A DNA stretch of 63,976 nucleotides, the filler included, from Chrysochromulina tobinii (Eukaryota), in the NCBI GenBank assembly GCA_001275005.1. It is 9 parts of 9 records of this genome, joined end to end, with 100 filler letters (N's around TTAATTAATTAA, not from the genome) between each part and the next. Parts side by side here need not be neighbours in the genome. Positions count along the whole stretch, not along the records: positions 16,807 to 27,983 come from JWZX01000143.1; 8 more parts are not named here. One strand, 5' to 3'. Below are positions 7,101 to 61,100 of the stretch, piece after piece. Under the pieces are notes generated by a model. The model was not told the origin of the DNA. It did no database searches and saw only the letters and a list, made by a program, of their open reading frames with translations. The position numbers and the translations under genes were made by a program. Within the stretch, counting starts at the first letter, position 1. The number at the start of each line of letters is the position of its first letter.

Positions 7101-8476
7101 GCTGTGAGAAGGGGGTGGTCGGAGGCACTCAGAGGCACTCAGAGGCACTCAGAGGCACTCAGAGGCACTCAGAGGCACTCAGAGGCACTCAGAGGCACTC
7201 AAAGGCACTCAGAGGCACTCAGAGGCACTCAGAGGCACTCAGAGGCACTCGGACCTGTAGGAATCGTCCCTCGCGCATTTGACCTCTGAGCTGATGATAC
7301 TGGTCGCGCACCTCGCGCAGCTCGCGCATCATCGGAGGTGTGCACCCCTGGGCGGCGGGATCAAGCGCGTTGTCTCGCTGGAGCGCCACGGCCGCGGAGA
7401 GTTTGGGCGGCAGTAGCGGCGTGGTCAGCAGCACGGCGCGCAGAAGGCGCTCGGCGGACGGGATGCCCCGACCGTCAGCGTCAATGAGGGAGGCTTGCAC
7501 GAGTGCCCGCTCACCTGAGGACAGAGCCACTCAAAGGAATTCAGCGGCGCTCAGACGCCATCAGGCGCCATCAGGTGCCATCAGGTGCCATCAGGTGCCA
7601 TCAGGTGCCATCAGGTGTCATCAGGTGTCATCAGGTGTCATCAGGTGTCATCGCTCACCTTCCCGCAAGACTACCGGGTGTCTCACGCGCAGCGCACGGA
7701 TGGCCCACGGCTGATCGCCGCGCAAATGGACTCCCCACAGCGGCAATTCCACAGCGAGCCCGGCGGCACACCTGCCATGAGACGCCATCGAACGCAATCA
7801 GAGGCCATCAGTCGCCATCAGTCGCCATCAGACGCCATCACACGCCATGAGACGCCATCGAACGCAATCAGAGGCCATCAGAGCGTTCCACAGCGAGGCA
7901 CGCCCTCAAACTCAAACCCCATCAAACCCCCTCAAAGGCCATCACACGCCATCACACGCCATCACACGCCATCACACGCCATTAGACGCCATCAGACGCC
8001 ATCAGACGCCATCAAACCCCCTCAAAGGCCATCACATGCCATCACACGCCATCAGACGCCATCAGACGCCATCAGATGCCATCAAACCCCCTCAAAGGAC
8101 ATCACACGCCGTCAAACGCTATCAGAGGCACACCCGACGATCGCGCGTACAGAATTGCCACTCGCCGCCACCACCGAGCCAAACGGGATGAACGACGAGC
8201 CCTCGCCGAATGCAGCCTCCGCGTCGTCCTGGGCGTCCTCATCGACCTCCGCATAGCTCGCCGCTGCGCCGCGCGCGCGCCGGGCCATCCCACCGGCCGC
8301 CCCGCCCGCCGCGCTGCCGCCGCACCCGGCCGCCGGTGCACTCGTCGCTTCCCATCGCCGAGGCCACAACGGTCTGGCCGAGAGCGCATGCGGTAGGCAC
8401 ATGGCCATTCGGAAGCCATTGGTGGGCTCGACGATCATGTTACGGTCCGCGAGCAGAAGCAGCACAAGCTCCTTGA
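1..8476 (-). CDS. Giant Sfi1-like (Trp-repeat, putative centrin-binding) and coiled-coil protein; partial at both ends
   Basis: Exons (minus) 8476-8134, 7771-7659, 7514-7255, 7101-1 join in frame through GT-AG introns. The last exon has no stop in the frame of codons 3k+1..3k+3 (about 2367 aa) and runs off the window. It carries many L/A-x-x-W-R motifs (LRRCLVRWRW, LTTALSTWRH, RQGWRAWRAR, ALRHWRR), then Ala/Glu coiled coil, poly-Q and (EAAAR)n. The Sfi1 assignment rests on motif resemblance only. Confidence 0.75.
7102..7254 (-). repeat. Intron filled with (GAGTGCCTCT)n, about 13 copies
   Basis: CAG|GTCCGAGTG donor and CTCACAG acceptor; removal restores the frame (FLQ|RISEFE). Confidence 0.85.
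7515..7658 (-). repeat. Intron filled with 10-mer (TGGCACCTGA/TGACACCTGA)n; AG|GTGAGCG at both junctions
   Basis: GGAAG|GTGAGCGatg ... ctcAG|GTGAGCGggc; phase-1 join. Confidence 0.8.
7772..8133 (-). repeat. Intron filled with (CGTCTGATGG/CGTGTGATGG)n; GTGTGCC at both junctions
   Basis: GTCGG|GTGTGCCtct ... ggcAG|GTGTGCCgcc; phase-2 join. Confidence 0.75.
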
Positions 8477-8576
8477 NNNNNNNNNNNNNNNNNNNNNNNN
8501 NNNNNNNNNNNNNNNNNNNNTTAATTAATTAANNNNNNNNNNNNNNNNNNNNNNNNNNNNNNNNNNNNNNNNNNNN
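8477..8576. other. Artificial contig spacer (same 100-nt linker at 16707-16806, 27984-28083, 30855-30954, 38337-38436, 52790-52889, 56049-56148, 62604-62703)
   Basis: N44 + TTAATTAATTAA (stops in all six frames) + N44, identical eight times. Confidence 0.99.
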
Positions 8577-18957: not shown

Positions 18958-19563
18958 TTAGTTTGCTACCCCTTTCGCCTTTGGCAAGCTTCGCTTACGA
19001 GCACTCACTAGAACAACCTCGAAGAGTCGGTGTCGCGCGACGATGCCAAAGAGTGTGCTGATGATCGTGAGGAAGAGCCACGCGCCGCGACCGATGGCGC
19101 CACTCGCGTGCAGCTCGTCACGCTGACGCCTTGCGTGATCGGCAAACGGGCGCAGCACGCGCGGGCCGATGGGCTCGATCGCGAGCGTCTCGAGACCAGC
19201 AGCCTCAAGGGCTGCGGCGTACCTGATGAGGGATGCCATCAGAGGTCATCAGGGTCATTCAGAGGCAATCAAGCCATCTCAAGGACTGCTGCGTACTCCT
19301 TGGCGCCATGGAGATTGGACGCAATCAGACGCAATCAGACGCAATCAGACGTAATCAGATGCAATCGAACGCAATCAGACGTACTCCTTGGCGCCATGGA
19401 GATTGGACCACGGGATGTCGCAGAGCCGCGCGATCAGCCGGCGCAAGACCGCGCGCCATAAGCGGCGCCAGCCCCGCCGGTAGCGGCCGAGGCGGCCACG
19501 GCGGCCCGTGTGCTCCCCGCGCCGCCACCACCACTGCAGCAGCTGCTGCTGCTGCTGCTGCTT

Positions 19564-19603
<40 letters not shown>

Positions 19604-20223
19604 GTCGCGACGATCAGGTCTGCCGCCGCGAATCGCCCCTCTGGACGAAGCAGCGGCGCAGCGTGATCACGCAAAAACACAGCGCGCGTTGAAAAGTGGT
19701 AGGCACAGTCGAGGCAGAGCACAACGTCAAAGGAGGGCTCGCTCGAGCCGACGGCGGCGGCCAGAGCGGTGGCCGAACCATGGATCACGTCGACTGCGCC
19801 GGAGCCGCCCAGTGATCCGTCGCGCTGCGCCCTGTGCGCAGCCTCCACATGGGTCAGCGACGCTTCGACGGCCACAACGCGGCGGACGCCAAAGCGCTCG
19901 ATCCAGAAGTTTGTCTGCTCCGCGTAGCCCACGCCCACGTCAAGAACCTCGTCGTGTGCGCCGAGCGACGCCGCCTCTCCCACAGCCGCAGCGAGCGACG
20001 TGCACGCCTCTTTAAACGAAGTCCTTGCCGCCTCATCAGCTGACGCAGGCCAAAGGCCGAGGTTGCACCAGCGCGAGGTGAGACGCCACGCCGACGAGGA
20101 GGGCTGACAGTGTTGTTGGGCGCTATCTGCGGCGGCAGCGCCCTCGCCGGCCTTGCGCCGCTCCAGGTTGAGGAGCAGCGGCGCCGATTCATAGGTGCTG
20201 CCGACGATGAGGAATGCATCCAT
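18958..20223 (-). CDS. Class I SAM-dependent methyltransferase
   Basis: Exons 20223-19385 and 19222-18958. WCNLGLW, VLDVGVGYAEQ, FDVVLCLDCAYHF, LLRPEGRFAAADL, YAAALEAAG; contains a poly-D/poly-Q insert. Confidence 0.9.
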
Positions 20224-20448
20224 TTCACGCTTTCAATCCCTATGAATACGAGTTCAAGTCAATGTACATGTATTGATTTCACTTGACTTTGTTCTGGGGT
20301 CAGTCCCCTGGATGGTTGGATGGGCACGGACAGCAGGACAGGGTTCGGGAAACTTGACCTAGTTAGGAAGTTCTTGCTCGCTCGTGAATGGAGCACAAGT
20401 GCAGAGCCACTTCTGCGCGAGCGAGCACGGCACCTCGCTGCATCAGCA

Positions 20449-23400
20449 ATGGGCTGCGCTAGCTCGAGCCCAGGCAAGGCCGCTCGGCTGCCGCCGCCTG
20501 GCGGTGGCGGCGGCGGCAGCACGCAGCAGACGGATGAGGATGGCTACAACCCGCTGACGCAGGAGGAGATCCATTCACGCATCCAGTGCAGCGAGAGGGC
20601 GCTCCTGTTCCCGCTCGGGAAGACGGGTGTGACATTGCGCTATGCGTACCTCTCGCAGCGCGGCTACTATCCCGATGACCTTTACAAGGCCAACCAGGAC
20701 GCGTTCAAGATCGTCGAGAGGTTCAATGGCCGGGACGACCAGATCTTTCTGGGCGTGTTTGACGGCCACGGCTCGGACGGTCACTCGTGCTCGTATTTTG
20801 TGCGCGACTCGATCGAGGCCGAGCTCAAGCGCCAGATGGCCAAGTACCCGAACGACTTCGAGAGGGCGTACCGGCTCGCGTTCGAGACCGTCAACCTGCG
20901 CATGCACGACCAGTACTTTGACGACTCAATGAGCGGGACGACGGCGATCACTGCGTTCTTCACAGGCACGACGTTCACAGTGGCGAACATTGGCGACTCA
21001 CGCGCGATGGTGGGCGAGAAGAAGGGCAAGCGAGTCATTGCCTACTCGCTCTCCATTGACCAGACGCCCTACCGTGCGGACGAGCGGGAGCGCGTCAAGG
21101 CGGCAGGTGCGGTGGTCATGTCGTGTGATCAGCTCGAAGGAGTAGTACCGTACCATGAGAATTGGGGCGTGAGTCTGGGCGAGGAGCTCGATAACGGCGG
21201 CGACCCGCCGCGCGTGTGGGCGCCCGGGAAGAGCTTCCCAGGCTGCGCGTTTACGCGCTCGATTGGCGATTCGGTCGCGGAGAGCATTGGAGTGTACTCC
21301 GAGCCCGAGTTGCTGCGCAAGGAGCTCGCTGACGGGGACCAGTTCCTTGTGCTCGCATCGGATGGCGTGTGGGAGTTTCTGACGAACCAGTCGGTCGCGG
21401 ACATCATCACGAAGTTCGACGACCCGCTCGACGGTTGCCGCGCCGTCGTGGCTGAGTCGTACCGGTTGTGGTTACAGTACGAGGTGCGGACGGACGACAT
21501 CACGATGATCCTCGCTTTCGTCGACCGTGCCAACGGCCAGAGCGGCAGAGAGCAGCCTAGGTCGGGCTCCCTCTCCACGTTGCGCCACGGCTCCCCCGAC
21601 CAAATGTCGGCCGGGCTGGGCGTCGTCGGGCGCGCTGGCGGCGAGAATCGCCCAGTACGGCGCGCGCTCTCGAAGGAGAAGAAGTCGCAGATGTCGATCT
21701 CGTCGACGTCGGCGGAGGCGGAGGACTTATCTGATTGGGTGATGGAGACGATCCCAAAGACCCGAGCGGAGCTCGCGCGCATCAAAGGCGCCGTCAAGAC
21801 CAATTTCCTCTTCCAGCACCTGAACGAGGCTCAGCAGCAGCTCGTGTTTGACGTGATGAAGCGGGTGGAAGTTAGCCGAGGCGACGTAGTCATTCGGCAG
21901 GGCGACCCGGGGGACTGGTTCTACGTCGTCGACTCGGGCGAGTTCTCAGTCTGGATGAGCCAGAATGGCAAAGAGCATCAGATCCTCAGGTACGCTTGAT
22001 GGCTGATCTCGACTGATCTCGGCTCACTGCAGATTGCCTCTTGAGTGCCTTTGAGTCCCTCTGGATTGCCTCTTTGATCAGGTACACGACCGGCGGCGGC
22101 ATCAACCCTTGCTTTGGCGAACTGGCCCTCATGTACGGCAAGCCGCGCGCGGCCACAGTGCGCGCGGACACGGTCGGCGCACTTTGGGCAATGGACCGCA
22201 AGTCGTTCCGCTCGATCTTGATGAAGTCGTCCTCGCTCACGCTCACGCGCACGCTACGCGCCGTGGCGGTCCTCAAGAGTCTCTCCGTCGGTCAGCTGCA
22301 GCGCCTGCAGGACCTGCTGACGGAGGTGACTTTCAGCCCTAATCAGAAGATCATCACGCAAGGCGAGGCGAGTGACAACCTGTACATCATCGCAGAGGGG
22401 CGCGTGCGCATCACGAAACACGAGAATGGGGGGGAGAAGCACGTCATGGACCTCGGGCAGGGAGCCTACTTTGGCGAGCGTGCCCTACTTTACTCGGAGC
22501 CACGCGCAGCTTCGGTGCATGCCGCTGAGTGCCCCCGAGTGCCTCTGACCGCCTCTGCTCGCCCCCGATCGCTTCTGGCCGCCTCTGACTGCCTCCGTCA
22601 TCAGGTGAGTGCCTCGACTGCATGCAAGCTGCTCTACATCTCCAAAGGCGCATTCGAAGAGGTCCTGGGCTCGCTGCAGGGGATCATCGACGTTGACCGG
22701 CAGACGCGCGAGGGGATCGCCCATCAGAAGGCCCTCGTCCTTGAGCAAGAGGGCCTAGCACACGTGCAGGTGCCGCACGTGTGGGAGGGCATCGAAGGCG
22801 TCGCGTGCGCGTCCGAACCCTTCCAGTACACTTTAGCGAAGCTCAAAGGGCGCGAGTACACTGTCCGGGTCGCGTCTAAGGATAAGATCGTCCAGTCTGG
22901 ATTGCATGCGCGGGTGATGGCGGAGAAGGAGCTCGTCTCGACCCTCGTACAGGAGCATCGGATGGTGCCACTTGCTCTCATGACGCTCCAGGACGAGAGC
23001 ACGCTCTTCACTGTGTACAAGCCCCGCGTCGCCATCGACCTCGCCAGCTTGATGGGGGAGAGCGGCTTCGACGAGGCGACTGCGCGATTCTACACGGCTG
23101 GGGTGCGCTGCTTTTCAGTGCCTTATCAACGGCCTCTTGATTGCCTCTGGATTGACTCTACATGGATCCTTGTTTGACTCTTGATTGCGTATCTCATCAG
23201 GTGTGCCTCGGGCTCGAGCACTTACGCGCCGAGCACAGCCGCATCATCTACCGCAACTTGACGCCCGATGCGATCATAGTCGATGCCTTGGGCTATCCGC
23301 AGCTGATGGACATGCGCTACGCCGTCAAGGTGGATTCCGCGCCCACGGACTTTTGCGGCTATGCGCATTACCTCTCGCCCGAGCAGGTGCTGGGGCAGGG

Positions 23401-23854
23401 GCACGGCTTCGCGGCAGACTTCTGGGCGCTCGGCATCCTAACGTACGAGATGTGCTGCGGCGGCGCCAACCCTTGGCTCACAGGCGACTCTGTCGAGGAC
23501 AGCGAGATGGGCATCTACGCGCGCATCTCGGCGCATTCTCACGAAGGCCTCAAATACCCCGAGGGCTCCAGCCCGTCCAAGGAGCTCGTCGAGGTGCTCG
23601 ATGGCCTGTTGCACCCCGTCCCAGGCAGCCGGCTCGGCGAGCGCGGCATGGGGCCCAAGGAGCTGCGCCACGCCAAGTGGTTCAACGGGCTTCATTGGGA
23701 CAAGCTCGAAGCGGGAAAGCTCGACTCGCCGCACAAGAGGCAGGCGCACGAGGCCGAGAGCGCCGCGCTCAGGGGAAGAACGAAACCCGACGGGCTCGGG
23801 TCCAGATACTCAGGCGAGGCGGGCCTTTTCAGCGGTTTCAGCAGCATCTTCTGA
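20449..23854 (+). CDS. Protein phosphatase 2C + two cNMP-binding domains + degenerate AGC-like kinase domain
   Basis: Exons 20449-21989, 22082-22514, 22605-23102, 23201-23854. PP2C: NQDAF, GVFDGHG, ANIGDSR, TRSIGD, LASDGVWE, DDIT. cNMP: FGELAL..PRAATV and FGERAL..PRAASV. Kinase: YRNLTPD, DMRY, YLSPE, ADFWALG. N-terminus MGC. Confidence 0.92.
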
Positions 23855-24592
23855 TAAAGGGCGCCGTGGTGGGCGTGTGCGCGCCCTCGCCGGCCATGGC
23901 CATCACGTTTCGCCGAGCATCGTGGGCTGAGGCCCCGTCAGTTACACTTGTCTCTTCGTCTCCTCTCGTTTCAACGCGGCTCCAGGGCTGTACTCATTCA
24001 ATTCCCAAACAGGTGAGAGGTGTAGGGTTGGGGCCTCGTATAAAGCATGAAAATAGTAGACCACTCCCCCTCGTTGGGTCAACCGTCACGCCATTCAATT
24101 ACGCCCAAACAGGAGAGAGGAGTAGCGGGCGCGGGGTTTCGGGTTAGGCGGCCTGCCCCCGACCGCGGTCGAAGACCGCGGTTTCATTCTTGGGAGTGGA
24201 GTCGGCTCCGGGTCGTTCGTGCGGTTCCGTCTGGTTCGCCCCGCACGCGCCACCGGCGCGCGGCCTCGACGAGGCACAGGCCAGCGCCGGAGCTTGAAGC
24301 GTAGTAACCGACGCGAAGAATAGCGGCTCGTCTTTCCCGTCCGCGTCCCCGCCCCGCTCACCCGTCCCGTCCGGACCGTCCGACGGGGTCGGCGGGGAGC
24401 TCGGTCCTCTCTCCCCGCCCCTCGGCCGCTTTCGATTGACATTGCGCGCGAGGCGAGACTCCACTTTTACTGAGCCCGGTTTCTAATTTCTAAAGCGAAG
24501 CCTATCGTATCCGGCGTAGCCGCTCGCGCTGCAGTACCGTACAGTAGACTGCGCCTCGCAGCCGAGCCTGTGGAAGCGGAACCAGCCCCTCG

Positions 24593-42080: not shown

Positions 42081-45000
42081 GGCATGAAATACATGTTCTC
42101 TTCTGTACGGCCGTTCATGTGTGAACGTTAACACGACACACGTGTAAACCTCAACCTGAAAAACTTTGGATCTAATTTCTTACTGCACATATATCTATGC
42201 ATCTAAGGGATAACCCTGTAGCTCCCTGTATGAATGCACATCATGATGTTGAGCACAGAGGGCTTCTGCAGCTGGAGGTAAAAACTATAGCGGTGGTCGG
42301 CAGGGCGCCGCGGCTCCTCGTGTGCCCTCCACTTCTAAGCCGCGCGCACTGAGATCTTCAGAAGCGCGGCGGCGGCGGCCCAGTCGCCGGCCTGGCCACG
42401 GCGGTGGCTCCCGGCCGAGGCGAGGCGTAACCGCCGTAACCACCCCCCGGGGGTGGTGTGTCCATGCCGCCCGGCGCTGGATACCACGGCGGCTGCGGCG
42501 GCTGCGGCGGCTGCGGCGGCGGCGGCGGCGGCGGCGCGTATCCATGCGAGGCGCGGCCGGCCGCGGAGGCAGAGGCAGTGCACGCGCGAGGCGACTTGGG
42601 AGGGGTGCCCGGGGCGGCGCCCGGGGCGGCGCCCGCCCGAGGCGGTGGCGGCCGTCGCTGCGGCGAGGCGAGAGCGACCTGCCGATCGGCGAGGAGGAGC
42701 GATGCGAGGTGCACGAATGAGGCAGGCAATCAGCATGCAATCAGAGATCATCAGAGCGACCTACCTGGAGTGACTCGAGCTCCTGCGCGAGCTGCCCCAC
42801 CTCATGGAGCGCCACCTCGCGCTGCGAGGTCACTCGCTCCGCCGCGAGCTGCTGCGAGCTCCGCTGCATCTCGGCGTGATCTCGCTCCTCCTTGAGCACC
42901 GCGTACGCCCTCCGGATCTCGGCGAGATCGCGCTTGGCGGCGACGAGCGCCGCCTTGGCGGCCTCCTCTCGCCGCCTCGCCTCGTCGGCTGCCTCCTTGG
43001 CCTGCGCGAGCGCCTGCCCCGCACCCTCCTTCTCCTGTCGTATTTGGGTCGCCTGCCGCTTTTCAGCCTTGAGTCGCTGTGCGGTCGCCTGGTGCGCAGC
43101 CGTCTGTTCCCTGAGCTCCTCGCGCACCTGATGAGGGAGGCGATCAGAGGCCATCAGAGGTGATAAGAGGCGATCAGAGGCGATAAGAGGGCATCAAAGG
43201 TCGAGAGCTTCACACGCACAGCCGCGAGCGCCTTGGCGAGCTTGCGCGACTCGCGATGCGATCCCATGAGCTCATCCGCCTCCGCCTCGGACACGTCCGC
43301 CGGCCGGCCGAGAGCGACGAGCGCCCACCGGTGCAACGCGCGCGCACACCTGTGGGGAGAGCGCGCCGTGGTGAGCACTTGCATGCATACGACGAGCGCC
43401 CGCAGGTGCGACGCGCGCGCGCACCGGTCGCGACGGATCAGAGGCAATCAGAGGCAATTAGAGGACAACTAGAGGCAATTAGAGGCCAATTAGAGGACAA
43501 TTAGATGACAATTAGAGGCAATCCGAGGCAATCAGAGCGCGCGCGCACCGGTCGCGACGGACGCCACAGCGGAGGAGATGTTCGAGACGGGCGGCGCCCG
43601 CAAGCCTTCGGGCCTGCTTGCCAGCGTCGGCATGGGCGAGCACCTGTGAGGGGTTCGTCAACGGCACTCAGAGAGAGGCACGCAATCAGAGAGAGGCATG
43701 CCGAAAGGCGAGCACCTCGCCGCGCTCGAGCGCCGTCTCGGTCATCTCGAGGGCCTTGCGCGCGTGCGCCTCGGCGGCATCCGCGCGCGCGCTCTCGGCG
43801 TCCTTGTCCGTCTTGAGCTTCTCCATCGCCGCGCGGTGCAGCCGCGCGCGCTCGAGCGCGGCTGCTTCCCGAGCGGCGGCGTCCTTGCGATCGGCCTTGA
43901 GCTCGGCGATCTCGCGGAGCAGCGTCGAGCGCTCCTGTGGGGAATGGAGGGGGGGGGCGCTGTGGTGAGCACCTGCATGCAAGGGCAGGGCTCGGCGATC
44001 TCGCGGAGCAGCGTCGAGCGCTCATCACAGCGCGCCGTTGGGGACGTCGCTGCTTCGCGTTGCCTCGAGCGCTCATCACAGCGCACCTTTTGTGACGTCG
44101 CCGCCTCGCGTTGCTTCGCCTTCTCGCGCTCGATGGCCGCCTCGGCGTCGGTCTTGCCCGCCTTGAGCGCCTCGCGCGCCTCGCGCAGGCTGCGTGCCAA
44201 TCCGAGGCAATTAGAGGCAATTAGAGGCAATTAATAGAGGCCATCATCAGAGGCCATCATCAGAGGCCATCATCAGAGGCCATCATCAGAGGCCATCATC
44301 AGAGGCCATCATCAGAGGCCATCAGAGGCCATCAGAGGCCTTCAGAGGCCTTCAGAGGCCTTCAGAGGCACTTGGAGGCACTCACCTGCGTGCCAATCCG
44401 TCGCGCTCGGCCTGCAGCGTCGCCACCGTCTTGCGCAGCGACCCCTCCTCGAGCGTGCCCGACACGGCGCGCTGCGCCTCGGCCTGGGACGTGGCGAGGG
44501 AGGCCGCGAGGGCCGTGCGCTCCTCGCGAAGCGTCGCGAGGCCCTTCTTGAGCGCCTTCTCGCGCTCGGTCGCCGCGTCGCGCTCGTACCGGAGACGTTT
44601 CGATTCCTCGAGCAGCTCCTGCATGCAATGAGGGAGGCCATCAGAGGCGCACTCAGAGGGGCGCGCGCTCAGGCGCACTCAGGCGCACTCAGGCGCGCTC
44701 AGGCGCCTTCAGGCGCGCTCAGGCGCGCTCAGGCGCCTTCAGGCCCTCCATGAGTCGATCGAGACGGAATCGAGATCGAATCGAGATCGAATCGAGATCG
44801 AATCCGAGGGTTTCGTCGCGCACCTTGGCACCGAGCAGCCGGGCGGTTTCGCGCCACGCCCAGAGCACACGGAGGCACGAGCCGCCCCCAAATGGAGAGA
44901 GCCACACGACGCGCTGGAGCTCGAGCAGCCGTGCGGTGCGACGCCCGGCGGCCTCGACGGTCGTGGCCTTTAAGCCGCCGGCGCCGGCGCCGCCACCGTT

Positions 45001-48000
45001 TGCCATCGCGGCGGCAAAGGCGCTGTTGGCGGCGGCGAAGGCGGTGGCGCCCCCGGGCTGAGCGCCGTACTGAGCGCTCACGGCACTCGCGCTCGAGAGC
45101 GTCGTGCTGAGCGCTTGGCGTTCGGGCACCGGCTGCAGCGCGAGCGCCGTGCCGAGCGCGTGGTTCGGCGGCGGCGGCAGCGACGCGCGCGTCGACGGCG
45201 GCGCACGCGGCGGCGGCGAGAGCGAGGGCGAGGTGACGGGCGGCTTGTCGCGCTCGTCGCGGCGCTCCTGTGCCGTGTGGAGGGTGTGGAGGGTGTGGAG
45301 GGTCCGTCGGAAGGGGCAATTGGGCTCCGGCGCTGTGGTGAGCACTCGCATGCAAGGGAAGGTCATCAGTGGCAATCAACGTACCTGGAGGGTGCGTCGG
45401 AAAGGGAAGTTGGGCTCGGGCCCACTCGAGGCGTAATAGACCCATCGACGGAGCGCCTCCCCCGCCACACAGAGCCAGGAGGCGGTGAGGCACGCGTCCA
45501 ACCGGCGCGCCGCCGCGAGCAGCTCCGACTTGCTCAGTTGCTCCTCTAGAGAGGGTACCTCGGCAAGCACCTGATGACGAGGGAGGCCATCGAGGGTGTG
45601 AATTGAGGCCATCATCAGAGGCCATCATCAGAGGCCGATTCAGATACCATCTCCCGAGAGCGCATCTCCCGAGATCGCACTTCCCTGGCCCTCAGCTTAA
45701 GGGAGATCGAGGGCACTCAAGGGAGATCGAAGGAGATCGAAGGAGATAGAGGGAGATCATGGGAGATCAGGGGAGATCGCACCTCCTTGGCATCCCTCAG
45801 CTCGCGCCGTGCCGCGAGCGCCTCCGCCGCCTTGGCCTTCGCGTCCTCCCGAGCGCCCTCCGCCTCCCGCGCCGCCCCCTCGAGCTGCTCGCGGAGTGCG
45901 GCTTCGCGTGCTGCCGCGGCCGCGCGCGTCGCTTCGTGTGCACGATCTCGCTCGAGCTCCTGCGCGGCGCTCGCGGCCTGAGGGCGCTGTGGTGAGCACT
46001 CGCATGCAAGGGCAGGTCATCAGTGGCCATCAACGTACCTGGAGGGTGCGCAGTCGCTCGTGCTCCGCCGCCGCCGCCTCCTCGAGCTCCGCCCGCAAAG
46101 CCGCACGCGCCTCCGCCGCCGTTGCCGCCTCCGCCGCCGCCGCGGACCAACGGTCGCGCATCTCGTCCACCTCGCGCTCGACCGCGCTCAACTCGGCGCT
46201 CAGCGCCGCGCGGACGGCGTCGGCGTCGGCGAGCGCCGAGTTGAGCGCGAGGTTGCCGAGATGGCGCTGCTCGTCGCGCTGGCGGAGCGCCGTACCGAGC
46301 GCCGACTGGAGCCGCTGCGCCTCCATTTGCGTGGCGCCGAGCTGTCGCTGCACCTCCCTCTGCATCGCCTGCAGCGCCGCGTGCTGCTCGAGCTGCTTCT
46401 GAGAGCCCTCCACGAGCGTCATCGAATCGAGCAGCTGGGCTCGCAGCTCCACCTGCAGCCCATCTGCGTGGATCCGAGCCTGCGCCACCTCCACCTCCAC
46501 CTCGCCGAGCGCCGTGCTGAGCACGCGCTGCGACGCCTCGAACGCGCGCACGTGCGCGCTCATCTCGGCGACCAGCTGGGCGCGCGCCGTCTCGGTGCGC
46601 TCCCGTTGGGCGCGCGCCTCGAAGGTGAGCGCCTCCATCGCCTCGTCCGCCGCCGCGCGCGCCGCCTGCGCCGTCTCGAGTGCGCGCGCGCCCGCCTGGA
46701 GTTGATGGCGGAGGTGGCCGAGCTCACCACGGCGCGGCAGCTCGGGGTGATTCTCGAGCCGCTCGAGCGACCTGTGGGGAGGTGAGGGCGCCGTGGTGAG
46801 CACTTGCATGCAGGTAGCTCGGGATGATTCTCGAGCCGCTCGAGCGACCTCCACGCGCGCTTTGCCGTTACGAGCCATCCCTGGCTCGTCATTTGGGTCG
46901 TCGTTTGGTCATGGCCGATTGGTGTGGCCTTGGGCCGCGGCCGATCAGCCGCCGCCGCTGCGCCCGCCGCAGCGCCGAAGCCACCTATCTTTGCGGCGGC
47001 GGGCGGGGCGGCGGGCGGGGCGGCGGGCGGGGCGGGGCCGTCTGCGCTGCTTCTCGCGCTTGCCGCGGGGGTGGGCGTCGTCTTGGGCACCAGGCGTTCC
47101 TCGAGGGCCGCGAGGCCCTCCGCGAGGTCGTCGAGCGCCGAGGCGGCCGCGTACCTAATGAGGAAGGCAATCATCCTAATGAGGGAGGCAATCATGATAA
47201 TGAGGGGGGCCATCGTCCTAATGAGGGGGGCATCCATCCTAATGAGGGAGGCACTCCTCCTAATGAATGCCTCACTCCTCCTAATGAATGCCTCACTCAT
47301 CCTAATGAGTGCGCCACTCAATCCTCCGCGAGGTCATCGAGCGCCGAGCCGGGCGCGTACCCGTCTTCGAGGCGCAGCGCCGCCGCGAGCTCGAGAGCAG
47401 CCGCATGTCGACGCACCTGTGGGGAGGCGATGGCGCCGTAGTGAGCACATGCGTGCTTGGAGAGGGCAGCCGCATGTCGACGCACCGCATGCCCCTGCTC
47501 GGCCGCCGCCTCCTTGGCCACCGCCAGATCGCCCTCGAGCTGCGATCTCGCGGTCTCGAGCTGCGATCTCGAGGCCGCCAGATCGCCCTCGAGCTGCGCC
47601 GCGCGCGCGCGTGCCTCTTCGACCTCGGCGGAGAGCGTGTCGATCGTCTGGTCCGCCACCAACAACGACTCCGCCACCTGATGAGGAAGGCAATCAGAGG
47701 TCATCAGAGAGGTCATCAGAGGTCATCAGAGGTCATCAACAACGACTCCGCCACCTCGGCCGCATCAGTCTCGGTCTTGAGACGCAGCTGCTCTTCGGCC
47801 GCACAGGCGGCCGCCTTGGCCGCCGCGACCTCCTTGGCAACACGCAGCCGCTCACGTAGCGCCGCCCCTTGCGTCTCCTCGGCCCCGATGGCAATCTGCA
47901 CCGGCGCGCGAGAGGGGAGGTGAGCAGCAGTCCAGATCACTCAGCGGTCACTCCGAGGTCACTCCGAGGTCACTCCGAGGTCACTCCGAGGTCACTCCCA

Positions 48001-51000
48001 GGTCACTCCGAGGTCACTCCGAGGTCACTCCGAGGTCACTCCCAGGTCACTCCGAGGTCACTCCGAGGGCACTCCGAGGTCACTCCCAGGTCACTCCGAG
48101 GTCACTCCGAGGGCACTCCGAGGTCACTCCCAGGTCACTCCGAGGTCACTCCGAGGTCACTCCGAGGTCACTCCGAGGTCACTCCGAGGTCACTCCGAGG
48201 TCACTCCGAGGTCACCCCGAGGTCATCAGAGGTCGCGAGCACACCTGCACCGCCGCGAGTGATGTGAGCAGTTGGTCGAGCGAGGGAGGGAGCGCCTCGT
48301 GCAGCGGCGGCAGCGGCGAGGTATGCGTGAGCGGCACGAGGCTCGCGTGCACCTGATGAGGGGGGCAATCATGAGTGTCATCAGATGCGGGAGGCTGACG
48401 AGGGAGGCTGATGAGGGAGGCAATCAGGCACGAGGCTCGCGTGCACCGTCCCAAGCAGCTCGCCGATCTCGAATAATTGGACTAATTGGGTCTCCTGCTC
48501 GAGCTCGAGCAGAGATTGCTGGAAGTGCCACTCGGACTCGGCCGCGCGCGCGAGCTCCATCTGCGCCTGCGCCTGCGCCTGCGCCAGCTGCGCCTCCGCC
48601 TGCGCCCTCGACAGCACCTCCGCCGCCGTCTCATACGAGAGGGGTTCTCCCCCGTGCATGGGAGCGTCATAGAGCGTCTCGTCGAGCAAGTGGAGCCCCT
48701 CCTCCCCCGCCTCGGCATGGGGCGACGCATGCAAGTGCCCACCACGGCGCGCGCGAGAGGGGAGCCCCTCCTCCCCCGCCTCGGCATGGGGCGACAGCGG
48801 CGGCTCGCGGTGCTCGCGACGGCGCGAGGCCAATGGGGGGGGGCGCCGTACCGGGCGCGTGCTGCGGCGACGGCGCGGGCGGCGGATGCGAAGGCAGCAG
48901 CTGCGGCAGCGGCGAGGGACCGTGCGTCGGGAGCTGTGCGGGTGCCCAGGACGGCGCCACGTGCGAGTCGCGCCGCAGCTGCGTGGCGCCCAGTACGGCG
49001 CCCTCGAGGCGCCTCTGCCGTTCGCGCTCCTCCATTTGAGTCGCCCTCGCCATGCGCGCCTCCGCCTTCGCGCGCTGCTCGGCCAACGCCTGGAGCTGCC
49101 CTTGGACGCTCGTGTGGAGCTGCCCTTGGACGCTCGTGTGGAACTGCCCTTGGACGGAGCGAGAGTGCACCTGGCCGGCGCGAGATTGCATCTGGCGCTC
49201 GTCCGCTGAGCGAGATTGCATCTGGCGCTCGTCCGCTGAGGCATCGGCGCGTGCGCCCATCAGCTGCGCCTGCGCACATTCAGCGTCCCGGCGGGCCGCC
49301 ACCGCCGAGTCCGACGCCGACGCTCGGAAGTCTCTCGGAAGTCTCTCGGAAGTCTCTCGGAAGTCTCTCGGAAGTCTCTCGGAAGTCTCTCGGAAGTCCG
49401 ACGCCGACGCCGAGAGAGTCTGAAGTCGCTCGGAAGTCTCTCGGAAGCGGGCCAGCGCCGCCTCCGTCTCCGGCGCACCCGCCGATGCGAAGTACGGGGG
49501 GGCGGAGGCGTGCGGCAGCGTCGAGTTGGGCGGAGGCGCGACCACCGAGAACTGTGCCGAAAGCGAGCACGCGGCACGGGGGGCGCCCGCCACGACGCCC
49601 GGCGCACCGCCCGCCACGACGCCCGGCGCGACGCCCTGTGAACGGTCCGTTGGCGAGGCCAGGTGTGAACGGCCCCCTGGCGAGGGCCGGTGTGAACGTG
49701 TGCCCGAGCTGCGAGGCGGCGACATGAACTCGTCGGTGGGCGTCGTGGTGGGCGCGGCGCTGCCTGCTGGCGGTTCCGGGGGTGAGGTGTTCGGGGGGGA
49801 GGTGTTCGGGTAGGTGGGTTGGCGTGGCTCATAGCACTGAGGCGCGGGCTGTGGCGAAGGGGGGAGCGCATCGACTTCATGCGGGACGCCGAGCCGCGCC
49901 TCTCTCCCCCTCATCGGCCCGCCGCCTCCTCCCACCCCAACGGCAGCCGCGCTACCCGCCAGCACGGCGCCAGCGGAGCCGCCCGCCACGATGCCCGCGC
50001 CCGAGGCCGCCAAGTTGCGCTCGACACAGCGCTCGGGCCCGCGCGCTGGCGACGAGGAGTTGACGAACCCCCGTTCGGGGTGGCAGGCAGGGACAATGCG
50101 AGCGCCCGCCGTGCTGCGCGTGGCCGACGGCGCCGTGCCGGGCGCGGTGCGCGCCGTGCCGGGCGCGGCGGCGCCCGCCTCCGCGCCAGTCGCGCGCATG
50201 GGGCGGCTCGGCTTCGGTTGTCGCGCCGCCGCCGGGTCGACGCACTGCGGGCGCTCCCAGTGGACCTCGGCCGCGTACCCGCCGCTCGTGCCGCAGCCGC
50301 CGCCCACTCCGATGACGGAGGGGGGCGCCCAGTTGGGCGCCCACGACGGCGCGGGCGCCAGGGCCGCTCCGCGCGCCAACGGCAGCCCATTCACAGGCTG
50401 ATTCACAGGCTGGTTCACCATATGGGCCGGCGCCGAGTTGAGCGCCGGCGCGAGTGAATGGAGAGTGGGCGGCTGGGCGAACCGGGGCGCCGAGTTGAGC
50501 GCCATCGAGCGTGCCGCGCTGGGCGCCGTCGTGGGCGCATCCTCCGGCGGCGAAGGCGGCGGCGACATGGGATTCGAACCGCACGGCTCGAACGGCGCTA
50601 CTTCCATGCCGTGCAGTAGTTCGGGCTTCCGATCGGGCGCTGTCGTGGGCTTCCGATCGGGCGCTGTCGTGGGCTTCCGATCGGGCGCTGTCGTGGGCTT
50701 CCGATCGAGCCACGCCTCCGACCAGCGTTCCACAGCTTGGCCCAGCAGAGCCTCGCGACGCTCCTCCGCGCGCTCCGCGAGGCGCCCACGACAGCGCTCC
50801 GCGTGCTCGGCGAGTCGGCGCTTCTCGGCCTGCCGCGCACCTGTGGGGAGAGGGGCGTGGTCGCGCCGTGGTGAGCACTTGCATGCGGCGCGCGGCGTAC
50901 GCGTGCTCGGCCGACCGCGCCGTCGTGGGCGACGCACCGTGCTTGAGACGTTCCGCCTCCGCCGCGGATGTCTGCGTGTCGTAAAGTTGGGGCGGCGGCG

Positions 51001-51765
51001 CCCGCATGAGCTCTTCACAGCCCTCGGCTGCGCCGTGCATCGCCGCTTCCGCCGCGATCACGACGCCGTAGACGGCCGCAAAGAGATCCGAATCGTTCAT
51101 CGCGCCGTGGTGAGCACTTGCATGCGCAAAGAGATCCGAATCGTTCATCGCGCCGTGGTGAGCACTTGCATGCGCAAAGAGATCCGAATCGTCCCTCGCC
51201 GCCGCCGCCGCCTCGGACTGCGGACTTGGCGGCCGGTCGAGGGTCACCCCCTGTGGGAAATGGAGCAAGGGCAGCACCCTGCAGGCGGGCACGCTGCAGG
51301 CGCCCACGGCAGCGCTGCAGACGCCCGCAGACGCGGCCGGCTCCGCGGATGACGACGACCCCGCGTGTGCATCGAGGGCGTTGGTCCTTGACGAACCTTG
51401 ACGAACCTTGACGGACCTTGTCGGCGACCCCGCGTGTGCATCGAGGGCGTGAGGGAAATGGGAGGAGGCGTCGGCATGCGATGTGGCGGCGGGCGCGCTG
51501 TGGTGGGCATGCGCGCTGTGATGGGCATGCGCGCTGTGGTGGGCATGGGAGGAGGTGTCGGCATGAGATGTGGCGGCGGGCAGAGCGGCGGCGCTGTGGT
51601 GGGCATACGCGCTGTGGTGGACATGCGCGCTGTGGTGGGCATGAGCGCTGTGGTGGGCATGCGCGCTGTGGCGAGCATGGGCGCTGCGCCATAGTTCGAG
51701 CTCTGCCTGCGCGGCTGCCAAGCTGTCCCTGGCAGTGAGCAACTCCTGTGGCTGCTGCTGCCGCA

Positions 51766-58172: not shown

Positions 58173-61100
58173 ATGATTCGGCCAGTCAACTCGCCGCTGG
58201 CCTTCCTGCGGGACGCGCTCCAAACGGTTGCGCTGCAGGGTCGCCAAGGCGTCCGCGTCGACGCGCTTTGGCCGTTGCTGCCGAGCGTTGGTGACGTGCG
58301 TCCTGCAGGCGACCAGCACGTGCGCCGATGGCTGTGGACGCAGCTCAAGGCCCATGAAGAGATGAGTGTCAGCCTCGCAGGGCACACGGTAGAGCAGATC
58401 AGGGCGTTCACGCTCGAAGAGGCTGGTGGAGTGCTCATCACTGCGAGCGAGAGGGCGCGCATGTGGATGTATGGGGTGCGAGACGGCTCCGATGAGAGCC
58501 TGAATCCATCCGAGGACATGATGAAGGTGATCGAGGAGCTCGCGCGGGCGGGGCCCCGCGGCATGCTACAAAACCAGCTAACAAAGGCGGTGAAGATCCC
58601 GGCGAACAAGCTCGCGTACACGCTCAGCGTGCTCGAGATGGACCACGTCATCGAGCGCGAGGCCGTGTGGATCAGCACGGCGAGCCTGCGCGCCGACCCC
58701 GCCGCCGCCACCATCCCCCCGCCGCCGCCAAGCTTCAACAAGTACGTCAACCCGATCCTGAAGACCAACTTGGTCACGTTGCTTGCGCTGCGCCCGGATA
58801 TCCCGATGGCGCCGCTCACTGCGTACAAGGGTCACTCGCATGGAGATGGGGGCTTGCTCGAGCGCATGGTGCAGCTGCTGGCTGCCTCGCCTCATGGACT
58901 GCTCCCGTTCTTCAAGCTGCGCATCGACCTGGGCATCGCGACGCGCGAGGACAAGGGGGTATGGAACCGGCTCAAGGAGCGCGCCCTTCAAGACGGACTC
59001 ATCGAAGAGGTCAGCTTCACAGTCGGAGGGGCCAGCTTCACAGTCGGAGGCGCAGCCGCTGGCGCAGCAGCTGGCGCGCTCGGTGGTGCGGCTGGGGCAG
59101 TTCCCGATGCGAGTGGTTACCGGCCACGCGCAGTGCGCCGTGGCATCCGGCTGGTGCGCCGCACGCGGCCCGACAGTGTCGACGGCAGCGGCGAGGCCAG
59201 CAGTAGCAGCAGCGCGCCACCGGCGCTGCTCGACCACGCCCCGTTGCTTCAGATGCAGAGCCACCTCGAGCTCGCCCGATCTGCCGGGATGCTCGGCGTG
59301 AGCTTTAAAGAGAAGCTGCTGCTCCACCCGAAGCACGTGACGAAGCGCATCGTCGACCTCGTCGATGCCCACGGCGTCTTACGCCGTTCAGAGCAGCTCG
59401 GACGTACCAAGGCCTTCCGCCTCTTTGCGCTTGGGACCGCGCCTGCTGGCGGTGCAGCCGGCGCGGTGGGCGGTGGCAAGCGCTCCGGCATGACGAGGCT
59501 CGTGAGCGACCAAGGGCGCACGCTGCAGCAGCAGCAGCGGCGCCAGTGGCTGCTCGACCTGGTGACTGCCGAGGGCGTCGTCGCCACGGAGACTCTCCGA
59601 TCCTTTCTGCAGCACAAGCAGAACGCCGCGGCAGCGGCAGCCGAGGCGGCCGCGGCGGCCGAGGCGGTCGAGGCGGTCGAGGCGGCCGAGACGGCCGAGG
59701 CGGGTGCGGGCAGCAGCAGCAGCGTTGGCATGCTCGGGCCGCTCGGAGGGCCACTCTTAGGGCCGCTCGCAGGGCCGATCGCGCCGCTCACGCCTCACCC
59801 ACCGCCGCCTCGGCCGCCGCCGCCTCGGCCGCCGCCGCCTCGGCCGCCGGCGAGTATCATCGACCGAAAGACAGTGCTGCGCATGACGGATGAGATGCTC
59901 TCAGAGGGCCTTCTGACCACACTCATCGTCGACAACCCTCTCGCACAGGGGCAGGCTGCCTCGGGAGCGGCGCCCTCTGCCAAGCCCACTATGGTGGGCG
60001 ATCGATCGAAGCTCGTACTGCTTGCGATGCCGGGCGTCACAACCGATGGGCCAGAGGTCGCCCGGCTACTCCAAGCGATCAGTGCCGCGGGCAGCTGGAA
60101 GGTCTTCACGACGCGCTCCATTGCGGCTCGTGTGCCCGAGAGCCAAGCCATCCGTCACAAGGCACGGCCGCTCCAGATCGCCGGACAGCTCGAGCGGAGC
60201 TCGGAGCAGCAAGGGCGCTTCCAGGGGGGGCATGCCCTCGCCCTTGCGCACGTCGGAGGCGGCGACGGCGGCGGCGCGGCGGGCATTGGTGAGACAGCGG
60301 AGCGCGGTCGCGGTTCTGGGCGCGGGCGCGGGCGCGGCCTCCAAGTCTCAGCAGAGGGTCGCCTGATTGGTAGCTTGGGCCGCGGCAAGGGCATCAAGCG
60401 CGAGCGGGACCCACGTACCGACTCGGCCGTTACAGACTCGGCCGTTGCCTCTGCGGGGGCGATGCACGAATTGGCAGGTGGCGGTGGCAGCGTCACCGGC
60501 CCTGGCGCTCACAACAGCGCTGGCGTAGCGACGGGTGCCGGCGGCTCACTGTTCGACGGGAGCGCTGTTGTGAGCGCCCAATCAGCATGCAATCAGAGAC
60601 AATCAGGCGGCTCACAACTGTTCGACGGGAGCGGCACCGTTCTGCCTGCGACCTTTGACTTCCCGTCTGATGGGCACGATCTCGACGGCATCGGCCAGCT
60701 GCAGCTTCGGTTTGGGTACGTGTGATTGCATCGGATGGCGTCTGATTGCGCCCCTCATCAGCTTCGGTTTGGGTACGTGCCCGGGCGCGCGTGGCGAGTG
60801 TCTCTGATTGCATGCTAATTGCCCCCCTCATCAGGTACGTGCCAGGGCGCGCGTGGCGTGCGGAGCGCCTGCATGGCATCGTGCTCGACATGGCGCGCGC
60901 CTCTCTTGCCGATCGGGCGGGGGATGCCGAGGCGGCGACGGCGGTGGCCTGTTCCAAGCTGCCTGGTGGCGCTGTTGGGCTGTGGGGAGAGCACGAGAGG
61001 CCTGTCCCCAGCGCTGGTGCGCCGACTGCCGGCGACGTGATGGCAACGTCGGCGGAGATGGCGACCTACGCCGCGCCGCCGCCGCCAAGGGTAACGACGG

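Follow-up and report, generated by a model that had tools for sequence, protein, structure and literature searches.

The origin of new spliceosomal introns is an old question, and the views on it fall into two camps: one attributes new introns to specialised transposons (introners) and the other to accidents of break repair. In the model of Rogers, an intron is reportedly created by tandem duplication of an exon segment that holds AGGT. Neointrons of Daphnia pulex have exon/intron repeats of 4-12 bp, include a 'staggered-then-staggered' class and are explained by repair of staggered breaks in the available text of the report (PMC4202315). Introners are intron families derived from transposons, and the accessible parts of two reports place them in Micromonas, Aureococcus, Symbiodinium, a Chrysochromulina MAG and others (PMC9860276, PMC12130899). 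Breaks with 3' overhangs that are filled in and joined have been shown experimentally to yield tandem duplications of < 100 bp, according to the available text of PMC8355091.

The inserts that we found in the alga Chrysochromulina tobinii resemble the Daphnia neointrons as these are described in the available text of PMC4202315. In both, a direct repeat of the neighbouring exon lies on either side of the insert, with one of its copies in the intron; the intron grows by later events inside it, which leave repeats there; and an enzyme encoded by the element is unnecessary. However, the repeats are 14-95 nt in the alga (19 and 29 nt at the methyltransferase locus) instead of 4-12 bp, and the filler nearly always consists of fragments of the same few intron modules, whereas that text describes no recurring family for Daphnia. 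Because the filler of the alga consists of recurring intron-module fragments, the process copies introns.

Like introners, as far as the available parts of PMC9860276 and PMC12130899 describe them, the inserts of the alga are present in many similar copies at intron positions, and one splice site lies in the insert while the other comes from the duplicated target; inserts that carry the 3' site and inserts that carry the 5' site both occur. Introner families can add codons according to the same sources, and the inserts of the alga that consist of a core only are likely to add in-frame codons. However, introner duplications are given as 3-9 bp, fixed within a family and often accompanied by inverted termini in the available text of PMC9860276, whereas those of the alga are long and variable, lack inverted termini and vary at both ends of the insert. 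The tandem duplications made by fill-in are tens of bases long, as in the alga, their length is set by the spacing of nicks, and repeated rounds give compound products; unlike the inserts of the alga, they were induced in mammalian cells and contain no captured filler in the part of PMC8355091 that was available. We found no description in the literature, supplementary tables aside, of long exon-derived repeats with recurring intron cassettes in haptophytes.

The methyltransferase locus is a clear example of a type of history that is already known, successive staggered insertions. The genome-wide process appears to be a new variant that lies between break-repair intron gain and introners. The scars of the alga are like those of Daphnia but are long enough (19-60 nt) to be read event by event, and, since the same set of intron modules is inserted again and again, introns are copied as a mobile family would be.

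The window, that is, the whole stretch of 63,976 nt that was analysed, is GC-rich (about 59-75% GC in 2-kb bins). It contains eight blocks of 44 N, 12 bases and 44 N (8477-8576 and seven more), with no read alignment across them. The methyltransferase gene lies on the minus strand and is predicted to have the following parts:

19385..20223 (-): exon 1 of a SAM-dependent methyltransferase gene, with ATG at 20223 and the end ...GCC AAG GA; 281-aa open frame to ...HGAKEY
19223..19384 (-): predicted intron of 162 nt in phase 2, GTACGT...CATCAG, placed by sequence and by a frame that runs on into the conserved C-terminus
18958..19222 (-): predicted exon 2, 87 residues plus the shared codon, with stop TAA at 18960-18958; aligns with the C-termini of homologues

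The product of exon 1 matches Pfam Methyltransf_11 and Methyltransf_25, both exceeding the cut-offs. Homologues of exon 1 comprise 46 database proteins (E <= 1e-5), and the named matches are from the haptophytes Chrysotila, Prymnesium and Calcidiscus (36-41% identity) and the bacterium Gemmatimonas sp. (39%), a weak hint at a haptophyte-like algal host. Past exon 1 the unspliced frame reads GTC TGA, a stop after one codon, and the frame from 19222 reads (G)TAC GCC GCA... and continues for 87 codons to TAA. The predicted excision of 19384..19223 would join AAG GA|G TAC and give ...AKE|YAAALEAAGLE...; with these borders the GT..AG rule is obeyed and the frame is restored. In the alignment, all eight homologues that reach the C-terminus are gap-free over the junction ...NLHGAxEY|xAxLxxAGL.... 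Since they are gap-free there and exon 2 aligns to their ends, removal of the intron is needed for the full-length protein, and there is no deficit of residues for a micro-exon to fill. More distant homologues encoded on contigs of genomic size, such as P0004 from a 16,850-nt contig, are uninterrupted at the intron site. Within exon 1, at 19534-19607 (-), runs of GTC and CTG triplets encode an Asp/Gln stretch, whose length and order differ between the window and P0002, a closely similar protein from another assembly.

The intron can be divided, together with its margins, into two direct repeats and two inserts; the relative ages given here follow the history that we propose below:

19380..19408 (-): upstream copy of repeat 1, 24 nt of the exon-1 end plus GTACG, which is the working 5' splice site; exact 29-nt repeat
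19321..19379 (-): putative younger filler of 59 nt, six TCTGATTGCG-type decamers with no AG and no 3' splice signal
19292..19320 (-): downstream, intronic copy of repeat 1, exact, and present in a DNA contig of run X11; left part of the putative junction fossil
19278..19296 (-): upstream, intronic copy of repeat 2, a 17/19 copy of the exon-2 start; right part of the putative fossil
19223..19277 (-): putative older insert of 55 nt, termed cassette B, with branch-point-like CTGAT-type decamers, a pyrimidine-rich stretch and the 3' splice site ...GGCATCCCTCATCAG
19204..19222 (-): downstream copy of repeat 2, the first 19 nt of exon 2, which reads GTACGCCGCAGCCCTTGAG

The order on the minus strand is thus GTACG, 59 nt of decamers, a copy of the 29-nt repeat, 14 nt and the 55-nt cassette. 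The 29-nt repeat (19292-19320 and 19380-19408) is exact and reads GTCCAATCTCCATGGCGCCAAGGAGTACG on the minus strand. Its intronic copy is followed by CAGCAGTCCTTGAG (14 nt), which completes the copy of the exon-2 start: GTACGCAGCAGTCCTTGAG at 19296-19278 and GTACGCCGCAGCCCTTGAG at 19222-19204 are 17/19 identical. The two repeats share GTACG, and by this overlap the 43 nt from 19320 to 19278 equal the end of exon 1 joined to the start of exon 2 with 2 mismatches, a match that has a chance probability of about 1e-22 at a given position. The intron at 19223..19384 therefore does contain a copy of its own exon-exon junction, as the original prediction stated, and the two repeats bear out its reading of 19278-19320 as about 24 plus about 19 nt. 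The filler unit named there, GTCTGATTGC, is the TCTGATTGCG repeat read in another register, and there are six units, three of them exactly TCTGATTGCG. Decamer arrays of this kind are present elsewhere in the window and in the fetched loci described below, and cassette-B-type ends recur in the window.

Splicing would drop exactly one copy of the duplicated exon stretch and restore the message, as in the model of Rogers. Unlike that model, in which both splice sites are derived from the exon, the acceptor CATCAG, the pyrimidine tract and the branch-point-like motif lie in the inserted cassette. In a repeat search at the locus no inverted termini were found, and inverted matches were confined to duplicated exon sequence. 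Rfam gave zero family matches anywhere in the window, so that the cassettes are not a described RNA.

The piece between the two fillers is present in DNA beyond the window's own assembly. A 123-nt contig from X11, an independent DNA run, covers 19220-19342 at a depth of 48, the single-copy depth, and spans exon 2, cassette B, the middle piece and the first decamers with zero differences; because of this match the middle piece is real DNA. A second X11 contig covers 19330-19516. No single contig bridges the decamer array to fix its number of units. At the RNA level, the spliced joint 19385|19222 was absent from the contigs of five RNA runs (X12-X16), in which cover is thin, and a contig from X15 (19101-19291, depth 2.3) is unspliced and extends from exon 2 through cassette B into the middle piece. 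In the haptophyte E. huxleyi intron retention is reported to be common (PMC4028052). Splicing of the 162-nt intron is thus predicted from reading frame and homology.

The same X15 contig might be taken as a sign that the middle piece is a micro-exon, a possibility that the original prediction had itself raised, and the fact that decamer arrays break short-read graphs might suggest an assembly artefact. Both are extremely unlikely. The RNA contig is continuous through cassette B, hence it represents unspliced RNA or DNA and not an exon edge. There is no AG between the 5' splice site and the piece, a stop lies one codon beyond exon 1, and the eight homologues have no extra residues and leave no room for them. 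An artefact is opposed by the X11 contig described above.

A gene on the plus strand next to the methyltransferase (20287-24147), with PP2C phosphatase and cyclic-nucleotide-binding domains, has three introns that are seen spliced in RNA contigs of two runs (about 21990-22081, 22515-22604 and 23103-23200). The intron at 22604 ends ...CGTCATCAG|GT, which is a cassette-B variant. Since this intron is spliced in RNA, introns with cassette-B-variant ends are removed where predicted. The three introns of this gene retain just 4-8 nt of repeat.

The junction copy is probably the overlap of two target duplications that two successive insertions left at one site through break repair. The first event would have joined a 55-nt piece of an existing intron, consisting of branch-point-like CTGAT decamers, a pyrimidine-rich stretch and CATCAG, into an uninterrupted ...AAG GAG TAC GCC..., and 19 nt of the target would have been duplicated concurrently. 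Since the 19-nt duplication starts with GTACG, the upstream copy plus the insert would splice out exactly, as an intron of 74 nt. Later, a second event would have placed the 59-nt decamer filler between two copies of a 29-nt stretch that reaches from the exon-1 end 5 nt into the older intron. The upstream 29-nt copy would keep a working 5' splice site and the downstream copy would become intronic. There it would lie next to the copy of the exon-2 start left in the intron by the first event, and the two would read as the spliced junction. The decamer filler has no AG and could not make an intron alone, so that cassette B must have come first. The divergence of the repeats (2/19 mismatches for that of cassette B versus 0/29 for that of the decamers) has the right direction for this order, and at the methyltransferase locus alone the difference in age is not significant (Fisher P = 0.15).

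The original prediction had also offered an mRNA-templated patch, in which a piece of spliced mRNA or cDNA is pasted into the intron during repair. The 43-nt match to the spliced junction would agree with it. However, the left half of the piece is exact, whereas the right half (GCAGCAGTCC versus GCCGCAGCCC in the exon) has the sequence of the diverged copy in the intron instead of that of exon 2 today; the piece is bounded by the ends of the two fillers; and a patch fails to explain single-insert introns in which the exon-2 half alone lies at the 5' end. Since the duplication begins at the splice site and the DNA before insertion had the same string as the mRNA junction, the match is no evidence for RNA. 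The patch is unneeded and fits poorly, and we give it hardly any credence.

The two-step history predicts that an allele free of the younger insert would read exon 1, GTACGCAGCAGTCC..., cassette B and exon 2, with no decamers. P0002 is a 98% identical protein that ends ...KEYAAVLETA (...SNLHGAKEYAAVLETA). Translated in frame, the middle piece plus the start of cassette B gives SNLHGAKEYAAVLEMA*, which matches the end of P0002 at 15/16 residues. This indicates that the P0002 allele would read from exon 1 into the diverged copy and the cassette, and would lack the decamers and one 29-mer. P0002, which is known as a protein, could represent the intermediate, a secondary deletion between the 29-nt copies or, less likely, an assembly collapse; under all three readings the younger unit behaves as a separate indel. 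The sequence thus reveals the order of events at this locus, whose intermediate seems to survive in a related assembly.

The insertion that duplicates its flank likely recurs across the genome and creates new introns. Our survey covered 845 kb, namely the window plus 141 fetched loci (781 kb). These loci came from one metagenome pattern scan, which gave at least 141 loci and has zero overlap with the methyltransferase gene; the scan demanded ...CATCAGGT, and its centre matches are hence biased towards spliceable copies. In the window we looked for AG|GT sites whose next bases recur 30-1200 nt upstream, with 30 shuffles as control. The scan found 13 repeat-flanked AG|GT introns with repeats of 12-56 nt against a shuffle mean of 0.33, and it missed the methyltransferase intron because the seed spans a mismatch.

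The inserts belong to recurring types. Cassette B consists of CTGAT-type decamers that end ...TGCCTCCCTCATCAG, and cassette A of GCATGCAAGTGCTCACCACGGCGC, then pyrimidines, then CCCCACAG; at least 367 distinct cassette-B ends and at least 120 distinct cassette-A cores are present in the 845 kb. With flanking repeats scored from 14 nt up, such a repeat was found at 128 of 315 cassette-ended AG|GY sites: 97/252 for B at AG|GT, 11/25 for B at AG|GC and 20/37 for A at AG|GT. The figures at non-cassette sites are 315/4388 (AG|GT) and 862/8848 (AG|GC). The median length of the repeat is 27.5 nt for cassette B (n = 108, range 14-95) and 34.5 nt for cassette A (n = 20, range 14-54), and 13 of the 128 repeats are perfect. 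Rows from a broader scan (494 'unique', 156 candidates) are rich in coding tandem repeats and were excluded as counts.

Among the 128, 15 were flagged as having a junction copy in that the 14 nt preceding the intronic copy recurs upstream. Inspection of the rows classed them as nine true two-insert introns, five whole-unit arrays and one plain tandem duplication. Introns that hold their own junction, which the original prediction had proposed to count across the genome, thus number 9/128 among the repeat-flanked cassette-ended introns of the 845 kb. Three of the nine lie in the window:

19223..19384 (-): the methyltransferase intron
60716-60834 (+), window: two-insert intron
43548-43350 (-), window: two-insert intron
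Fetched loci L033, L074, L078, L098 (at 115), L118 and L129: the other two-insert introns

At 60716-60834 (+), a 36-nt piece of cassette B is flanked by repeats of CAGCTTCGGTTTGG|GTACGTG and is followed by 28 nt copied from the start of exon 2 and by another cassette. At 43350-43548 (-), two copies of TCCGTCGCGACCG|GTGCGCGCGCGC enclose 99 nt of CTGAT/CTAAT decamers; then come 35 nt copied from the start of exon 2 and a cassette A that ends CCCCACAG. In most of the nine introns the upstream filler has no acceptor. The older repeat has 1-6 mismatches and the younger is exact over 14-51 nt, although the search favoured exact younger repeats. The younger repeat comprises 9-43 nt of exon and 1-12 nt (median 5) of the older intron. 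One idea for this clustering of its end just past the 5' splice site is that the old intron and an incoming 5' fragment share GTRCG. The clustering counts against random breaks, which do not predict it.

The 162-nt structure might instead have arisen in one complex event with four template switches, from the target to a decamer donor, to the upstream target, to a cassette donor and back. Both fillers belong to one decamer family, and short shared bases are present at some junctions elsewhere, as such an event would allow. In Daphnia, internal repeats occur in 55/90 new versus 100/617 old introns, and breaks at the time of formation are discussed in the available text (PMC4202315). A single event is, however, improbable. 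It does not agree with the unequal divergence of the repeats, at the locus (0/29 versus 2/19) and in all nine two-insert introns with the search preference just mentioned, nor with P0002, in which the younger unit is a separable indel. The alternative in the original prediction, a fossil of the pre-insertion site after two events, is supported: each filler has its own flanking direct repeat, the repeats differ in age, single-insert introns of the same layout are common, eight further two-insert introns are alike, and P0002 ends like an allele without the younger insert.

The ends of the inserts bear on the mechanism. Repeats of >= 12 nt lie on both sides of 94 of the 120 distinct cassette-A cores; 25 of the 94 are the bare 24-nt core, 27 extend to AG and 42 have other ends. 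The composite of GTACGTTGATTGCCACTGATGACCTGCCTT and the core has 15 matches, and in 4/15 the end of exon 1 is duplicated at the 3' end of the intron and supplies the AG. These four (L030, L053, L022 and L067) form a mirror class: the insert has GTACGT, decamers and the cassette-A core and thus carries the 5' splice site, and the duplicated exon-1 end of 21-32 nt, ending AG, is the acceptor. The inserts are thus pieces of a minimal intron that are truncated at the 5' end, at the 3' end or at both, and they have no fixed ends. Because they are truncated at either or both ends, staggered-break repair with intron-derived filler is favoured over a transposon with fixed ends.

The length of the unit (repeat plus insert) is a multiple of three in 16/25 core-only units (P = 0.0016), in 13/28 intron-like units and in 15/41 of the rest. 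The excess in the core-only class fits the survival of in-frame products in coding DNA. At 51102-51173 (-) and 48726-48800 (+) in the window, bare 24-nt cassette-A cores lie between direct repeats of 24-43 nt in apparent coding DNA. The units are 48 and 69 nt, multiples of three, and one of the copies runs antisense to the cassettes around it. They resemble insertions that keep the frame more than they resemble introns.

We propose the following repair process. Staggered breaks would be repaired with their overhangs filled in, to give duplications of variable length, 14 to about 60 nt; the filler would be fragments or copies of pre-existing intron modules; and selection would retain the products that splice or stay in frame. 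The variable lengths of the repeats, the variable ends of the inserts and the lack of inverted termini fit break repair, as we infer it, better than they fit a transposase or simple target-primed reverse transcription. Strict microhomology is 0 nt at all four junctions of the methyltransferase intron and 0, 0, 0, 1, 2, 2, 2, 3, 3 and 4 nt at 10 cassette-A junctions. Beyond the methyltransferase locus, junction microhomology is suggestive only, and its absence at that locus counts against repair. For templated insertion of the polymerase-theta type, which copies inserts from nearby or related templates, no donor copy was identified.

The large number of conserved copies raises the alternative that the cassettes are non-autonomous mobile elements (introners), moved by a nuclease or reverse transcriptase that cuts the target with a stagger both long and variable. 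Excised intron RNA could, for instance, be copied in by target-primed reverse transcription; under this alternative, too, two overlapping target-site duplications would account for the junction copy. In many copies the 3' end is constant at the splice acceptor, while 5' starts and duplication lengths vary, as in LINE-type insertion. Cassette A has a preferred 5' edge at GCATGC, which counts against repair and is more reminiscent of a discrete element. Introner families of unknown mechanism have been recorded (PMC12130899). We nevertheless consider mobile elements unlikely. Inserts that are truncated at the 3' end or at both ends are common (the decamer filler, the 25 core-only inserts and the mirror class) and are not predicted by priming at an RNA 3' end; neither inverted termini nor poly(A) is present; and duplications of 14-95 nt are far from the 3-9 bp of introners in the accessible part of PMC9860276.

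We put forward, tentatively, break repair as a route by which the alga may multiply its introns without a transposon. Intron fragments (5' splice site plus decamers; branch-point core; pyrimidine tract plus acceptor) would be the recurrent filler at staggered breaks that duplicate 14 to about 60 nt, and the edge of the duplication, where it reads GT/GC or AG, would give the missing splice site. Repair alone may thus account for the birth of introns, for their growth and for their arrays, and the filler might be derived from excised intron RNA. If this wider reading is true, the alga would be a natural system for timing the birth, growth and loss of introns, repeats of this length should also favour precise deletion, and it would be possible to test whether repair polymerases or intron RNA feed the process.

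Tandem arrays of units made of a repeat and a cassette are present at L010 9980-10056 (-), L046 1140-1427, L073 10001-10290 and L033 9118-9338. Their periods are 38-73 nt, and each unit starts with GT and ends with AG. They look as if they had formed by unequal exchange promoted by the flanking repeats, or by repeated insertion. The layout of repeat plus cassette is also found with GC in place of GT (GCATGT, GCAAGT, GCGAGC) at L011 about 4783 (+), L048 about 10522 (+) and L074 (-), which suggests that GC-AG introns are made by the same route as GT ones.

Among cross-sample locus pairs, a comparison of the DNA gave no pair of a filled and an empty site. The difference is a GCT microsatellite among L012/L057/L093 and 60-nt coding repeats between L033/L044. 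L087, a locus of another sample with 95-98% identity to the window, has about five decamer units more than the same intron at 43137-43190, so that the length of the filler is polymorphic; polymorphism of whole inserts was not found among these loci.

Long decamer arrays of the intron-filler family are located in the window at 7122-7250, 7557-7652 and 7774-8126, with as many as 36 units, each of which reads GCCATCAGAC on the plus strand and GTCTGATGGC on the minus. The window also contains a direct repeat with a 654-nt period (45362-46038), whose ends of 38-56 nt hold a 5' splice site, decamers and a cassette-A core; it is possibly a duplicated exon-intron unit.
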